From: a virus
IMG/VR virus record: IMGVR_UViG_3300006931_000001
Span: 53,395-117,394 of that record
Strand: one strand, 5' to 3'
Length of the DNA stretch: 64,000 nt
Positions 4,103-42,092 of this stretch are shown here, in pieces. A program made the position numbers and the translations under genes. The notes under the pieces are model-generated. The model saw only the letters and a list, made by a program, of their open reading frames with translations, made no database searches and was not told where the DNA came from. The first letter of the stretch is position 1. Each line of letters opens with the position of its first letter.

Positions 4103-7100
4103 GTGCAGGAGATGTCACAAATCCAAAACGCGTTCGTGTGAGTGCTAACCAGCGTGTTGACGCTGTTGATGTAGATGCACTCAGCACTGAATTACTAGAA
4201 CATAATGACGCGCAAGCGAGAGCTGAATTATTTACACCTTTGAACGTTGGAGGCACATCACCTACCGGGATGATTCTGACAGGCTACAGTTTGACGCTAA
4301 ACCCTACTGGTGGAAGTGATGGCAAAGTTAGAATTAATCCAGCTCTCGGTGTCGCCGTGGACGCAGATGGTAGATTGATTGTCAAAGAAAATGGAACACA
4401 AATTGACGTATCGATTCCTAGCGGCACGAATCAATTATATATTTATTGGAATGAAACAGCCGTAGATGCGGCTACACGTCGTTTTATTTCTGTAACTTCG
4501 CCTTTTAGTGAGTCACCAAAAACCACTAATACACGTTTTCAATCGACATTTGGTACATGGGTTCGGTCTGGTAACGCTACTACGATAGTAGCGACAGATA
4601 ATGTGAACGGCCAAACAAAAGCGCTTGTGTGTATTGGTATTGTTACTAATACTGCAGGAGTTATCTCTGTAACAGGTTACGATACGATACTAGCGCCAAA
4701 TGGTACAACCATTACAAATAGATTGAGTACGATTACTCAGCCTACTACAGTACCAGCTAATAACTCAACGAGCGGCACGTTTCAGACATTACATGATTTG
4801 GTAAAATCTCTTGGTTATCTGTTAGGTAGAGCTATTTACAATAGCAGTACGTTTTTAACGCCAAGTGCAGCAAATAATTTTGGTGCTTATAGTCAACCTG
4901 TAATCGGCGTAGACAGAGCCGGACGTGAGATTTATGATACGGTGACTATCGGTGATGGAGTATCTGTTTTTGGTTCATACAATAGAAATCAATTTGCAAC
5001 TGATGACCAGATGCTTAATGCTGCGTTGGCTACATTGGCAACGCGAGCTACTTCGGGATTAGCGGTTGGCTATCTGCTAATCAAGCCAGGTGTTACATTA
5101 TCTACATTTACTGGAAACGTAACTGTACCAACTAACTGTCGTGTTGTGATTCAAGGCTCGGGTGATTTATCTGCATCACCTCAAATAATTATCAACAGTG
5201 CAGTTGGTTTTACACTCGCTAGCACAACGACCAGTTTTTTAGCATTCGAGAACATTTCTATTAGTAATATCGGTACAGCAGTTTTACACAGCATAACTAC
5301 AACATTTCGTGCGAAACGTTGTATTTTTACGAGAAACGGAAGTGCTGCAGTTTTACCGTTATTTACAACTAATACTGCTGTTACGACAATCTCTGACTGC
5401 ATATTTGATAGATGTACATTTATCGAGTCTGGTATTAATGCCTATGATGATACGAAATACATGTTCATAGACACAGGTACCAATAATACACAAGGTGTAC
5501 CAACACGTTTTGTATTATCGAGATGTATATTTACCAACACGACAAATTTCTCTCAACGAGGAATTCGTGTAGGGAACATTAATGAAGGTTTGAATATTGA
5601 TGATTGTAAATTCCAATGTACACAAACAGGAGCTGCTGCTCCTGTAAATATAACACCTTTTTGGGTGGAGTTGATTTCACAGTCTGGTACTTTTGCTTCT
5701 GGCATGGATCGTAGAATTCGAGGATGTATATTTAATGCTTGCGGTGATTGGAACTCCAAACCAATAATGTGTGGTATTTCACTTACAGACGTATGTGGAT
5801 TAACAATATCACACTGTGATTTCCAGCGTATTTTACGACCCGTCAATATTCCTTTAGGAACACAGGGTGGTAGTCAAGATGTAAAAATTTTAGGTTGTCG
5901 TTTCTTACAGCGAGCTAATGGTATTACGATTCAGACAAATACGAGTACATCAGGCGGCGGTGTAGCAACTGGACCTCTAAATCACATCGCAGCAATCAAT
6001 ACTACAAGCACATTAAAGAATTTCACAGTACAAGATTGTTATTTCGAGGCTTGGGTTTGTTATCATGCAGATAGTTCAGTAAGTACAAGTATCAATGTTA
6101 CTTATCGGGGTTGCACATTTATCGATAGTATGTTGTTATTTGGAGATCCATTCTCGCCTGTATCTTCTTTTCAAACAGTAGATGTAAATCACTGTACATT
6201 TCAACGTACATCATCCTCTATTACTGCATTTATTCCGGTTCGTATTCATGGACCGACACTTAAACAAATTTCTGTTTCAAGTTGTTTTTTTAGAGGTTAT
6301 GCATTTGCGAGTACGAATGTTACACCTCTGTGTATAGATCTTGGAAGTGGTTCACTTGTTACAACTTTAGACCAGATACACATTGATGGTTGTAGTTTTG
6401 CAGATTGTGATAATGAAACAATGAATTATTTAGGTAGTTCTACGACTACATTACATTCATTGATTTTCTTATACGCTACGACACTTATGGTTGATATTAC
6501 CGTAACGCGTTGTCGTGCATCTACGATTATGTCCTCTGCGGTTAGAGGTACTGCTAGTAATTTACAGCACGTTACATTTGTAGGTAGTTCATCATCTAAT
6601 GTTGGACCTACTACTGTTCAAAATATGCAAATTTCAAATAATGTTATAGGAGACATTAGTTCTCATTGTGGATTAGTAAATACTTTTGGTCTATCTAAAT
6701 TCGTTTTTAACTCTTTGTTGATCTCTGATAATCAGCATACAATTAAAATGAACGACGACATAGTTACTGGGGCTGGTTATGATGATCAGTGGTCTGGTAC
6801 CTATCTTAATATTCCGTCATCTTCTACAGAAATTTCTGGTGAATTGTCAGTTAGTGGAAATGTTTATTATATTGTTAATACAAATGGAGGCTCTGGATTA
6901 GGTAGTCCGATTTATAAAATGATATATCATCGTGATGACAGTGTAAGTGCAACATCAAGTCAGTGGGGATCAGTGCTTATAGCGAATAATGTATTAACTG
7001 TAGATATTAATGCTAGTTCAATCAATGCTGTAAACTTTATTGGTTTAGTTGGTGGACTTACTTTTGTAAATAATATAGCTCGACGCAAAGATCTTCGAAC

Positions 7101-37311: not shown

Positions 37312-37791
37312 ATGAGTAAACGACGCAAGAAATTTTTTGCTACACGTGAGTGTGCAGCTATCATAGCGCGTCACCCTACCACAGGTAAGGAAATCATAGT
37401 TAATTACCAAAAAGACGCAATGATAGGACCAAATATCGATGAAGAATTAACACGATTTCCTGGTCTGTTAGCGTGGTGGTTGCAACTACGTGACATCGCC
37501 AAAGATGATCTAGACGATGCACGACACAGAGAACATAATATTGAGGAAGATCTCGGCATCAAAATCCGAGACATGACGGAAAAACGAGGTGAACGGCCGA
37601 CAGAAACTTTGATTAAGACTCGAGTTCGTGCACATCCTAAAATGCGCTCAGCCTTTCGTAAGCGCATGTTGGCTGAGCGCAGATGGCGACAGCTCAATTC
37701 AGCTGTCGAAGCAATGATTGAAAAAAAATGGGCGATGCGTTCTATGATAGAACATAAACGCATCGATTTTGTATCTAAAGACTCCTACTAG
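37312..37791 (+). CDS. UvsY-like recombination mediator (putative)
   Basis: Helical protein IDEEL...AWW...PTETLIKTRV...VEAMIEKKWAM directly upstream of SSB and RecA. Confidence 0.5.
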   Translation: MSKRRKKFFATRECAAIIARHPTTGKEIIVNYQKDAMIGPNIDEELTRFPGLLAWWLQLRDIAKDDLDDARHREHNIEEDLGIKIRDMTEKRGERPTETLIKTRVRAHPKMRSAFRKRMLAERRWRQLNSAVEAMIEKKWAMRSMIEHKRIDFVSKDSY

Positions 37792-37801
37792 GAAAAGACA
37801 C

Positions 37802-38830
37802 ATGAAGATAAACAAAGGCAGAAAAGTCAAACGTCATTCTGACAAGAGTGAAGATGACGATGATGACTTAGCAAACATGCGTGAGAAGTATCGGAAGTAT
37901 CAGGCACGTGAGGAGGGAGGTGGTGGAGATCGTGGTGATTTCGATGTCTTGAAAGAAGGCAGTAATAATCGACGATTTTTGCCTATTAAAGGCACAAGAG
38001 AATTCTATTTTGAAGCGCCTGTTCACTGGAGTGTTGGACCGACAGCTCAGAAGGTGCGATGTATTGGTGCTTTCAATGAGAAAGGCTATATTCTCCCTAC
38101 CACGAAATGTCCTGTTTGTCGACGGTTTTTGGTAGAGCAGCAGAAAGTTAATAAGAAGTATAAGAGAGGTACAGAGGAAGGTAAGAAAGCGTATTTCGAG
38201 GTCAAGAATGCTTACCATCCTAAAGTGCGTTATTTCAGTAACGTTCTGAATGAGGAAGGCGAAGTTAAGATCTTAGAGTACGGAGAACAGATTTTTGGTC
38301 AGTTGCTTAGTCACTGGTTCGAAGATGGCTCCAAGGTCGGTGATTTTACGGATATTCATGATGGCAGGTGGATGAATATCCGTAAGATTATCCCAAAAGG
38401 AAATACGAACAAGACTAACTATAAAGTCCAGCCTGATGATGAAACATCAGAAGTCGAAGATTGGAAAAAGATTCGTAAGCAGTTGCACGATCTCAACAAA
38501 GCAGCAGGTGAGCTGACAAAGCCAAAGGAGATCAAAGCCATGCTAGATGGTGATGACTTGGATGACGATGACAATGATGACGATGACAATGATGACGAAA
38601 GTGATGATACAAGCGAAGACGATGATGAGAGTGACGACGATGATGAGAGTGACGACGATGATGAGAGTGACGACGATGATAGCGATAGTGGTAGTAATGA
38701 TGATGACGACGATGATGAAGAAGACGACGATGATGAAGAAGACGACGATAATGATGATGATACTGATGATGACGATGAAGATGATGAGCCTGTGAAACGT
38801 AAGAAATCCAAAAAGCATCGTCGTCATTAA
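37802..38830 (+). CDS. Single-stranded DNA-binding protein (gp32-like) with very long acidic tail
   Basis: [13 protein letters not shown]...C...CPVC zinc site, [20 protein letters not shown]; Asp/Glu tail; upstream of RecA. Confidence 0.7.
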
Positions 38831-39834
38831 TGCGTAAGAAAAAAGCACCTAAAATTATATACAAAGATACTGGAATTTACGCACAAGACGATAATCATAT
38901 TGTGCGTATATCCAAAAAAGAACGAAAGAAAATTGAGGCCAATCTCGCAAAAGAAGTTGCGAGGCTTCACAAGAAATATGGCGCAGAGAGCATCGTACCC
39001 GTTGTAGGCAAGCGAGGCGTTAAGGTAGATACATTTTCTACTCTAATGCCAGAGCTCAATGATTTATTAACAGGAGAATCTGACGACGATAACAACACCA
39101 TTGCCGGCTCTGGTACCGGCATGCCTAAAGGTCGGATCATCGAAATCTACGGCCCAGAATCGTCAGGAAAAACAACGCTCACACTTCACCTTATTGCAGC
39201 TGCACAGCGACAAGGTGGAGTGTGCGCGTTTATTGACGCTGAACACGCGCTAGATACGGCATATGCGGCGAAGCTACACGTCAAGCTACGACGACTCTTG
39301 CTTAGCCAGCCTGATTCAGGTGAACAGGCTGGTGATATTCTGAAAGACATGGTCAAGAGCGGTGTCTACACCTTGATCGTCGTCGACTCTGTAGCGGCGC
39401 TCGTACCGCAAGCGGAGTTTCTCAGCAAGAAATCTGACGGTGAGCGACGCACAGGTGAGACAGTGATGGGTGGTCAGGCTCGGTTGATGAGTCAGCTACT
39501 TCGTAGATTGACACGCCTATGTGCCAAGAGTGGAACCACTGTAATATTCACCAATCAAATTCGTATGAAGATTGGTGTTATGTGGGGAAACCCTGAAACC
39601 ACTCCAGGTGGCAATGCGCTGAAATTCTATGCATCGATACGGCTCGATGTGCGAAAGGTCAAGACACTCAAAAAAGGCACAAGCGTCACAGGCCATCGTG
39701 CACGTATCAAGTGTGTAAAGAATAAAGTTGCGCCTCCATTTAGAGAACTTTACGGAGATATTAAGCCAAATCGCGGTATCGTGCAGCTCTACGCAGATCC
39801 ACATTTTGGCAAGAAAGGAGCCACTGATGATTGA
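38830..39834 (+). CDS. recA: RecA recombinase
   Basis: [86 protein letters not shown]. Confidence 0.96.
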
Positions 39835-40201: not shown

Positions 40202-40413
40202 GTGAATTTAAACAATATAGACGTAGTCAAATTGCAGAATTACGTCCGTGGATGCCTGAAGATGATCTAAGTAATGTCGCAATCTCGGTACCTGATCGTA
40301 ATAACGGAAGTCCAAAACAAGGAGACATGATCGCACGAAATCCCAAAAATCACGAAGATCAATGGCTTGTATCAGCACAATATTTTGCTGATAATTTTGA
40401 ACCTCTTGTCTGA
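40198..40413 (+). CDS. Conserved small phage protein (PGDYG-like pattern)
   Basis: FKQYRR..IAELRP...GSPKQGDMIARNPKNHEDQWLV...YF.DNFE. Confidence 0.6.
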   Translation: MSEFKQYRRSQIAELRPWMPEDDLSNVAISVPDRNNGSPKQGDMIARNPKNHEDQWLVSAQYFADNFEPLV

Positions 40414-40439
40414 ATTCACACGTTACAAAGGAATAAATC

Positions 40440-40607
40440 ATGGAAAAGAAAAACAAGTCTGACAAGATTAGCATCCGTCGTGAGTCAATTCGTGAGCTGA
40501 ATCCCGTCACGGAACTACCGACCGTGAATGGTGGCGGTATGTGTAGCACTGCCGCACCGACAGGTATGTGCTGCACGCAAAGCAAGACGTGCACTAAAAC
40601 GCTCTGA
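40440..40607 (+). CDS. Lanthipeptide/RiPP precursor-like peptide (double-glycine leader, Cys/Ser/Thr-rich core); not in ORF track
   Basis: MEKKNKSDKISIRRESIRELNPVTELPTVNGG|GMCSTAAPTGMCCTQSKTCTKTL*; AAAGGA RBS; fills intergenic gap. Confidence 0.72.
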   Translation: MEKKNKSDKISIRRESIRELNPVTELPTVNGGGMCSTAAPTGMCCTQSKTCTKTL

Positions 40608-40668: not shown

Positions 40669-41268
40669 ATGAAAAAACGAGACAAATCTCTCAAAGTCAA
40701 AAAGCGCAGAATTCGTAAGGATATTGATAGGCGAGAAGAATGCATCAAACGATGCACACGTTTGTTATTTCGTCTTGATCGTCTGAATCGTCGTTATTTT
40801 AGAGGTGATTCAGCTGATATCAGACTTTGCAATGAATCGCTAGCACGCATTGTGGAGTACGTAAAAACGATGCCTGCGTCGTGGAATCCGCGTTCTAAAG
40901 GAAAGAACGCAATGATTCCTGGAATGAAGATTAGAATACGTGACGGTATTGAAAAATCACGTATGGCTACGATTAAGCATCTTGGAGGTCCAAAGCGTTT
41001 CTATGGAGCGCTGATTGTATCAGAAGACACACCCAAGACATTCATTGTCAAGCTAACCGACGGTGTGAAGACAGTTGCTTGGAAGCGCGACATTGAACCA
41101 ATTTGTGAAGGCGGACCAGAGCCTGTGGTGATTGATGATACACCTGAACCTGTGGTTCGTGAGGTAACGCCAGTAGATCCATTACAGAAGAAAGCTATTG
41201 AAAACAAGCACATCGAGCATGCACTGGCCGCACAGGCGGAAGAGAGCAAGAAAACAGGTGCGTCTTGA
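40669..41268 (+). CDS. Basic hypothetical protein
   Basis: 199 aa, AAGGAG RBS. Confidence 0.55.
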   Translation: MKKRDKSLKVKKRRIRKDIDRREECIKRCTRLLFRLDRLNRRYFRGDSADIRLCNESLARIVEYVKTMPASWNPRSKGKNAMIPGMKIRIRDGIEKSRMATIKHLGGPKRFYGALIVSEDTPKTFIVKLTDGVKTVAWKRDIEPICEGGPEPVVIDDTPEPVVREVTPVDPLQKKAIENKHIEHALAAQAEESKKTGAS

Positions 41269-41525
41269 ATCATTTTGTGGTTACTGATAGCACCATGATC
41301 CTGTGCATCGGTTACGACAAACACCAGATGCAACTAGAAGTTGTGTTTTCAACGTCGCTTGACTACGTGTATGAGTATAAGAATGTACCGCTACAGACTG
41401 TTAACGGTTTGATGTTTAGTGAGAGCATCGGTAGTTATTTTGCAGCCAACATCAAATCGCACTATCACTTCACCAAGAAACCTATCTCTGCTACTCTGAA
41501 ACGAAAGCTTCACATCAAAGGATAA
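41265..41525 (+). CDS. KTSC-domain protein
   Basis: DSTMILCIGYD...LEVVF...VYEYKNVP...LMFSESIGSYFAANIK. Confidence 0.85.
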   Translation: MNHFVVTDSTMILCIGYDKHQMQLEVVFSTSLDYVYEYKNVPLQTVNGLMFSESIGSYFAANIKSHYHFTKKPISATLKRKLHIKG

Positions 41526-42059: not shown

Positions 42060-42092
42060 AAGGCTCTACGTTGAATGCGTAGAGCCTTTTTC
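42060..42092 (+). terminator. Rho-independent terminator
   Basis: AAGGCTCTACG-TTGAATG-CGTAGAGCCTT followed by T-run. Confidence 0.85.

Follow-up and report, generated by a model that had tools for sequence, protein, structure and literature searches.

The stretch of viral DNA analysed here (the window, 64,000 nucleotides) covers positions 53395-117394 in the genome of a soil phage, IMG/VR record IMGVR_UViG_3300006931_000001, which is 117,394 bp long, has direct terminal repeats and is rated 100% complete. The element of interest is a very small gene lying two open reading frames (ORFs) 3′ of recA and on the same (+) strand: its ATG is at 40440, its stop ends at 40607, and its 55 codons, read from the ORF listing, specify MEKKNKSDKISIRRESIRELNPVTELPTVNGGGMCSTAAPTGMCCTQSKTCTKTL. 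The favoured reading, with a probability of about 0.55, is that this is an expressed phage gene for a precursor peptide with an L1a-type double-glycine leader, and that the peptide is matured and exported by the machinery of the host. The case for it is carried by the conservation of the gene under purifying selection, by a leader related at the profile level to a family of class I lanthipeptide leaders, by a phage genome that lacks the maturation enzymes searched for, and by the presence of such enzymes beside cellular relatives of the leader. Precursors of RiPPs (peptides made by ribosomes and modified after translation) are usually taken to belong to bacterial gene clusters; a virus with the substrate gene alone would be commandeering host enzymes through a compatible leader, and some soil natural products would then be phage-specified.

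Conservation of the peptide gene

The anatomy of the product supports its description as a double-glycine-leader RiPP precursor, and most of what a sequence-only reading of the window had said about it stands. The 55-codon translation agrees letter for letter, the AAAGGA ribosome-binding site is where it was claimed to be, and the predicted 23-residue core does contain four Cys, eight Ser or Thr and a duplicated GMC (residues 33-35 and 42-44). The cysteines that follow G31-G32 are C35, C44, C45 and C51, with C44-C45 forming a CC pair. The proposed double-glycine site, ELPTVNGG, is present as E25-L26-P-T-V29-N-G31-G32, where positions -4, -7 and -8 are V, L and E. The proposed LxLxKx5L leader motif fits, but only by way of conservative replacements (L to I and K to R): the window peptide has I10-S-I12-R-R14-ESIRE-L20, that is, I-x-I-x-R-x5-L. 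Within the core, Ser/Thr-Cys spacings like T41-G-M-C44 and S48-K-T-C51 occur, and the composition would permit dehydration and ring formation; a nisin-type lipid II motif, judged by eye, is absent from it.

ORFs this short are frequent by chance (50 of at least 30 amino acids are listed in 5 kb of the window), so the case for a gene depends on conservation across lineages and not on ORF length. Homologues of 52-57 amino acids came from a word-based search (three) and from scans of viral and metagenome contigs (eight loci), and copies with intact start and stop are found in at least five genomic contexts spanning 43-69% GC. Below, G000 is the complete phage of the window (43% GC), G001 and G002 are 69% GC viral contigs that represent partial genomes, L numbers are loci and P numbers are proteins. 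Conservation is concentrated in GGGMCSTAAPTGMCCTQSKTC, 21 residues made up of the last two leader glycines and 19 core residues, which is identical in the window, in L001/L002/L006, in L004 and in P0002-P0004, and has one change in L005 (GAG) and two in L007. Across these 21 codons three of the four other lineages show no amino-acid change, and the pairwise synonymous difference between lineages is 0.59-0.97 (the exception, 0.32, is L001 vs L007). The small non-zero values of pN (non-synonymous difference) stem from a codon switch at Ser48, which is AGC in the window and TCG or TCC in L004 and L005, together with the changes in L005 and L007. Over the whole peptide, identity to the window copy is 54-64%; nearly all of the differences lie in the leader, and all full-length homologues have G-G or G-A at the junction.

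A comparison at shorter range includes the leader. Between the window and its close relative L003 (RecA 99% identical) there are eight synonymous and no non-synonymous changes in the first 40 codons, the eight all lying in the 32 leader codons, within a compared region that has 88% nucleotide identity and 17 gap openings. In the 69% GC contigs the GC content at third codon positions (GC3) of the peptide gene is 0.93 with the core unaltered, which indicates that the gene is fully adapted to that genome. Conservation ends at the borders of the ORF, variation within it falls at third codon positions, and the flanks cannot be aligned between lineages. Judged by this pattern of substitution, the + strand ORF is a real, strongly constrained gene under purifying selection: it is conserved with start, stop and length kept, and the observation originally made from the window alone is confirmed as a whole.

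The opposing possibility is that there is no + strand gene here at all, either because the ORF arose by chance or because a 128-amino-acid antisense ORF (40208..40594) is the real one. In the window and L001 the antisense frame has a conserved look over the core (VQHIPVGAAVLHIPPP), which arises because its wobble positions are shared with the + frame; in L004 and L005 stops interrupt it immediately beyond the core, and its start is inconsistent. The + ORF, on the other hand, keeps its start, its stop and its length of 52-57 amino acids in every full-length copy, has neighbours that are all on the + strand and has a product that matches known leader models, leaving an antisense or chance origin highly improbable.

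Leader family and maturation enzymes

In NCBIfam the window peptide has one match only, to the class I lanthipeptide leader model NF038153 (lant_leader_L1a; 13.8 bits, E 0.048, residues 1-22). Its homologues score up to 21.9 bits with the same model (L005; P0003 has 18.3 and P0004 14.0, and P0002 and L007 have no match), and P0004 gives 24.5 bits with TIGR04149, the model for GG-leader RiPPs modified by radical SAM enzymes, which does not match the window peptide. A profile built from seven phage-type peptides and searched against 1.84 billion representatives (E ≤ 1e-3) returned 47 proteins: 43 are peptides of 43-75 amino acids with a KKLxLNRETxRxL...GG leader and a hypervariable core rich in Cys, Ser and Thr, and four are concatenated multi-unit forms. 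When 46 family members were tested, NF038153 matched 33 (E ≤ 0.01, best 6.6e-11), TIGR04149 matched 16 and NF038158 matched seven, while the bacteriocin signal model TIGR01847 (bacteriocin_sig) matched one of them and not the window peptide. The nearest clusters in the Atlas are labelled “class I lanthipeptide leader” (score 0.86), which is a lead only. These matches support homology, at the profile level, between the leader of the phage peptide and the L1a class I lanthipeptide leader family; the relation suspected from the letters alone is thus borne out for the family (33/46), although the window peptide itself falls under the cut-off.

The cores of the family bear on what kind of crosslink to expect. 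One subgroup (P0005, P0006, P0008-P0012 and P0016) has the core motif G[LM]CSTxAP[TS]GxC in common with the phage peptide without being identical to it; these related cores have three Cys (P0005, P0008, P0009, P0016) or two, and C45 is not conserved in them. A search of viral contigs found no loci related to P0005 or P0008. Even and odd Cys numbers are both common (59 even and 49 odd in cores from genome loci, 15 even and 25 odd in profile matches), and Ser plus Thr equals or exceeds Cys in 107 of 108 genome-locus cores and in 37 of 40 profile-match cores. Since there is no preference for even Cys numbers and Ser plus Thr is nearly always at least as high as Cys, thioethers fit better than disulfides.

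The phage itself offers no visible means of making such rings. When all 117,394 bp were searched in six frames with hidden Markov models, none of the domains LANC_like, Lant_dehydr_N, Lant_dehydr_C, Radical_SAM, YcaO and Peptidase_C39 was found. As controls, the LanC search found seven and two copies in two bacterial genomes, and the Radical_SAM, C39 and YcaO searches were positive in control genomes (Radical_SAM in 14/14). LanB/LanC and Radical_SAM are likewise absent from the partial genomes G001 and G002, and no LanB or LanC lies within 8-10 kb of the homologues L001, L005 and L007. The earlier statement that no Lan enzyme, YcaO, radical SAM enzyme or transporter is visible in the 64 kb therefore holds and extends genome-wide for the six domains; LanM (DUF4135), the LanKC/class III-V kinase/lyase domains and ABC_tran alone were not searched. 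The related partial genomes G001 and G002 carry a homologue and, as noted, neither LanB/LanC nor Radical_SAM. Together these searches support the status of an orphan precursor, and a phage without the maturation and export enzymes searched for suggests that the peptide probably depends on host machinery.

Such machinery does accompany cellular relatives of the leader. A degenerate DNA pattern for KKLxLNRETxR, searched in a collection of species genomes, matched 119 stretches, all but a few of which encode GG-leader Cys-rich peptides; 68 of the 80 listed titles are Acidobacteriota, mostly Thermoanaerobaculia, with Planctomycetota, Myxococcota and others making up the remainder, a bias that follows from the pattern chosen. 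ORFs of at least 250 amino acids in the 8-kb loci (321) were clustered, and the ten largest clusters were each checked in Pfam through a single representative. LanC-like proteins (13 ORFs in 12 loci) lie a median of 68 bp from the peptide, exporters of the C39-peptidase ATP-binding cassette type (C39-ABC) account for 12 ORFs in 10 loci, and LanB is found in five loci. LanB or LanC is present in 14/119 loci, a lower bound because the position of the peptide varies within each 8-kb piece. Radical SAM genes occur in 6/119 loci, all with a different type of core (..TISICKYCTTPLD..), and some loci, for example L017, L022 and L024, have a C39-ABC exporter without LanB or LanC in 8 kb. On this evidence “lanthipeptide” is the best-supported class for the phage peptide, short of settled.

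Single genomes can hold many such leaders: 15-18 matches, spread over the genome, are found in individual acidobacterial and Phycisphaerae genomes (G003, G004, G007, G407), which points to promiscuous enzymes with many substrates, and one 2.9-Mb genome has seven LanC genes. Prochlorosin-type systems work in a comparable way, with one promiscuous lanthipeptide synthetase acting on many scattered precursors, though they are class II (LanM) and use Nif11-type leaders. The likeness is one of setting, in that a genome with 15-18 scattered leader peptides could be a place where a foreign precursor is accepted; a literature search for cyanophage-borne prochlorosin genes gave nothing relevant.

Class I lanthipeptide precursors (LanAs) with an LxLxKx5L leader, many of them ending in Gly-Gly and often with a C39 protease in the cluster, are described from Bacteroidetes by Walker et al. 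(2020; 10.1101/2020.03.13.990614, PMC7268733). Like LanAs of the NF038153 type, the phage peptide has a short Lys-rich N-terminus, an LxLxKx5L-type helix, Gly-Gly and a core of about 20-25 residues rich in Cys, Ser and Thr. Unlike them, it is phage-encoded without LanB, LanC or LanT, scores under the cut-off, has an invariant core where cores in the family are normally hypervariable, and was found with no enzyme beside that core. The likeness to the TIGR04149 type (GG_sam_targ_CFB) is in the related leader, given the score of P0004, the 16/46 family members and the radical SAM genes at 6/119 loci; it differs in that the cores linked to radical SAM are of another type, that the phage has no radical SAM gene and that the window peptide does not match the model. 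No description of an orphan lanthipeptide precursor in a phage genome was found in the literature, although prophage-borne LanAs might be among the precursors listed by Walker et al. (2020); in PMC11118758 the terms “phage-encoded” and “virus-encoded” do not occur.

Several side observations were made along with these. The concatenated proteins (P0007, P0013, P0022 and P0026) have two to eight leader-plus-core units each: P0013, of 1277 amino acids, contains eight matched stretches, and in P0007 and P0026 a repeated NHNE[TK]L spacer stands between the units. All four may be RiPP precursors that have several cores and internal leaders. A family of ORFs of about 296 amino acids is found in L053, L061, L092, L105, L125, L126 and L127, where it adjoins peptides of the ..CKYCTTPLD.. 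type and, in 3/7 loci (L061, L105, L126), also radical SAM genes; the representative tested has no Pfam match, and the family is a candidate uncharacterised RiPP maturation protein. At L017 (2185-5415) the C39-peptidase ABC exporter has an extra N-terminal GAF domain, an unusual sensor-exporter fusion. Finally, a profile search of the PDB gave matches at E about 1 only, and the best of these, the hevein-like plant peptide Ac-AMP2 (E 0.85), was rejected as a chance match without significance. What the two have in common is P-[ST]-G-M-C-C-[ST]-Q (P-T-G-M-C-C-T-Q in the phage core, P-S-G-M-C-C-S-Q in Ac-AMP2); chitin binding of the hevein type requires aromatic residues, which the phage core does not have.

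Explanations for a lone precursor

If the favoured reading is right, the 32-residue leader would be presented during infection to leader-guided machinery already resident in the host. A host LanB dehydratase and LanC cyclase would form thioether rings in the core, and cleavage after Gly-Gly and secretion would fall to a host C39-peptidase ABC exporter. The functional entity would be the core set free in this way (antibacterial, anti-rival-phage or signalling roles are all conceivable); the leader would drift to fit the enzymes of each host, and the core would be held constant because the product acts on something conserved. Modification, its class, export, function and the hijacking of a host are steps that we infer. 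RiPPs usually show the opposite of a frozen core with a drifting leader; the arrangement seen here would be expected if the enzymes of each host required a leader re-fitted to them. The core does not change although synonymous divergence is saturated and GC shifts by 26 points, and it is absent from the cellular genomes searched; together these two features point to a conserved function on the phage side.

A more specific proposal is tentative and should be taken as possible only: that a lineage of soil phages carries a phage-specific ring peptide, encoded by a single-ORF moron that passes from one phage genome to another, whose core is frozen by selection and whose leader is re-tuned to the promiscuous LanBC or peptidase-containing ABC transporter (PCAT) of each host, and that it blocks, for example, rival phages or neighbouring bacteria. 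If true, compatibility of the leader alone would be a general way for viruses to reprogram RiPP biosynthesis, and the antibiotic factory of the host would become the producer of a phage-specified molecule. The gene would also amount to a natural experiment, in which leaders adapt to different enzymes around a fixed core.

A number of results weigh against maturation by the host as a lanthipeptide. With NF038153 the window peptide has 13.8 bits where the curated cut-off is 22, neither Pfam nor PHROG gives a match for it, and no homologue alone reaches a curated cut-off (the best are 21.9 of 22 and 24.5 of 25). In most of the 119 cellular loci no enzyme is seen in the 8 kb, and since the same leader type serves radical SAM and exporter-only loci, the class of modification is not settled. 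Two core patterns searched in 185,579 species genomes gave no confirmed occurrence of the core, and it is also absent among the best matches in 401 Acidobacteriota and 401 Planctomycetota genomes (profile searches with 16 candidates scored per genome, in which three and two genomes respectively gave matches at E ≤ 1e-4). With the core absent from the cellular genomes searched, there is no example of it beside an enzyme. Within the core no Ser or Thr is N-terminal to C35, so a canonical N-to-C lanthionine cannot employ that residue. The sequencing runs that contain the stretch are two DNA runs, possibly of the source samples, with no RNA run listed, a result that counts neither for nor against the reading. 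The presence of LanBC or PCAT in the host and their expression during infection are assumptions of the reading; searches (tblastn) against cultured phages gave at most 60% identity for RecA and at most 33% for a vWA-like protein of 766 amino acids, with matches from many host phyla, too distant for a host call. A predicted complex of the peptide with the C39 domain of an acidobacterial exporter, used as a stand-in for that of the host, had a score of 0.19 (mark 0.32) in a prediction for which controls were not run, and it likewise speaks neither for nor against binding. The interpretation first offered, of a phage that supplies only a precursor and would rely on host RiPP machinery, is upheld in part: as to the real gene, the RiPP-precursor anatomy, the relation to L1a leaders and a phage without the enzymes searched for, and not as to the peptide's own score or a settled class. 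As for homologues beside lanB/lanC in bacteria, relatives of the leader do adjoin these genes, and this core was found beside none.

The peptide may, for one thing, need no modification at all. As a double-glycine peptide of the class II bacteriocin or pheromone type it would be cut and secreted by a host C39-ABC exporter and would form two disulfides and no thioether. This would suit the GG site with its V, L and E at -4, -7 and -8, the even number of Cys (four) in the phage core, the relatives (L017, L022, L024) that adjoin a C39-ABC exporter without LanB or LanC, and the one family member in 46 that matches the bacteriocin signal model. It appears unlikely, however, since the lanthipeptide leader model matches 33/46 where the bacteriocin model matches 1/46, the nearest related cores have three or two Cys and do not conserve C45, and the family as a whole shows no even-Cys bias and nearly always has Ser plus Thr at or above Cys. 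More doubtful is the idea that the product is irrelevant and that the peptide is a decoy, a competitive inhibitor of a leader-recognising enzyme or exporter of the host, for instance one in a RiPP-based anti-phage system. The phage supplies only the precursor, and the position of the gene in a replication and recombination module fits early or middle expression (a timing inferred from the position). Class I lanthipeptide clusters with anti-phage function (lanthiphages) do exist, reported so far in Actinobacteria only (Shomar et al. 2024; 10.1101/2024.06.26.600839), and they tie this class of peptide to conflict between phage and bacterium; they are complete bacterial clusters in defence islands, in contrast to the lone phage precursor here with its different type of leader, and the leader family found here is mainly acidobacterial. 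More to the point, a decoy should keep its leader and let its core drift. The reverse is seen, with no change over the 21 codons in 3/4 other lineages and with divergent leaders, which argues against a pure decoy.

Less probable again is an intracellular small protein rich in Cys and Met that binds metal or regulates a host or phage protein, is never cleaved, and resembles a leader peptide only through inherited history. Two GMC motifs with a CC pair would be in keeping with this, as would the position of the gene among DNA-metabolism genes (SSB, RecA, KTSC, Mre11/Rad50-like) and the lack of a C39 peptidase in the phage (by the Peptidase_C39 search; ABC_tran alone was not searched). Yet the leader is also under selection, as the eight synonymous and zero non-synonymous changes over its 32 codons against L003 show, all full-length homologues retain the G-G or G-A junction, and the wider family has the leader and core architecture of secreted RiPPs. 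Host maturation of a double-glycine precursor remains the preferred account.

Genomic setting and mobility of the gene

Each phage has a single copy of the precursor gene. In the phage of the window it lies within a replication and recombination module whose order is UvsW-like and DnaB-like helicases, a family A polymerase, an SSB-like protein, RecA, two small ORFs, the peptide gene, a KTSC-domain protein and Mre11/Rad50-like genes. No sigma-70-like promoter was predicted just 5′ of the peptide gene. The strongest terminator-like hairpin (Table 1) is the only one of its size (12 pairs) in the scan, and weaker + strand consensus hairpins lie at 40741-40764 and 41394-41411. The “recA operon” is a predicted one, with which the strand of the gene and its place two ORFs past recA agree. 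No tyrosine integrase was found in the phage, which fits its earlier description as lytic and falls short of proof. As a separate matter, the SSB-like protein (window 37769-38830; PHROG 1192, E 5e-20) ends, at its C-terminus, in about 100 residues that are nearly all Asp, Glu and Ser.

Table 1. Features of the peptide gene and its surroundings, in window coordinates
Feature	Position	Strand	Basis
recA	38830..39834	+	Pfam RecA, E 8.9e-96
Shine-Dalgarno-like AAAGGA, 7 nt 5′ of the ATG	40427..40432	+	read from sequence
Precursor-peptide gene, 55 codons (stop included in coordinates)	40440..40607	+	ORF listing; intact start and stop in at least five contexts
Leader, residues 1-32: Lys-rich N-terminus, I10-x-I12-x-R14-x5-L20, E25-L26-x-x-V29-x-G31-G32	40440..40535	+	sequence; NF038153 match to residues 1-22
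Predicted core, residues 33-55: GMCSTAAPTGMCCTQSKTCTKTL, 4 Cys, 8 Ser/Thr	40536..40604	+	sequence; conservation
Strongest intrinsic-terminator-like hairpin, 12 pairs then a T run; possible end of transcription unit	42060..42088	+	consensus scan only, predicted

The surroundings of the gene differ from one genome to the next, even between related phages. G001 and G002 are distant syntenic relatives of the 43% GC phage, with about 45 ORFs that match G002 in the same order at 26-60% amino-acid identity. The peptide gene is not syntenic: in G002 it occupies 4826-4987 of the other strand and has thyX and an M23 peptidase nearby. The recA of G002 is closely followed by a KTSC homologue, and between them, where the precursor gene is lacking, there is one short match to another ORF. 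In L004 and L008 the gene is inside a tRNA array, on the strand opposite to the tRNAs; in L005 a serpin, a MarR-like gene and an AAA_33 gene lie upstream of it; and in L007 it is beside thyA and a ParB-like gene. The contigs of L004, L005, L007 and L008 have no other gene in common with G000 or G002, and no RiPP enzyme was found in the 3-10 kb examined. Within IMG/VR the core occurs only in G001 and G002 besides the window's own record. The KKLxLNRETxR pattern gave one match there, which was discarded as chance since it is out of frame with any such peptide, a result confined to that one variant of the leader. The points of interest, as far as these comparisons go, are a core that is invariant across 43-69% GC and seems confined to phage-like contexts, and a gene that moves as a single ORF.

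Some features of these contigs are worth recording for themselves. A GC gap of 26 points is unusual for a single phage lineage and suggests that the hosts differ greatly in base composition. In L004 (1-3257) and L008 a 3.3-kb stretch carries 12 tRNA genes, all on the same strand and interspersed with small ORFs. The serpin of L005 (5193-6305; Pfam E 2.7e-104) is full-length and is encoded on a phage-like metagenome contig of 44% GC, 3.7 kb 5′ of the precursor homologue.

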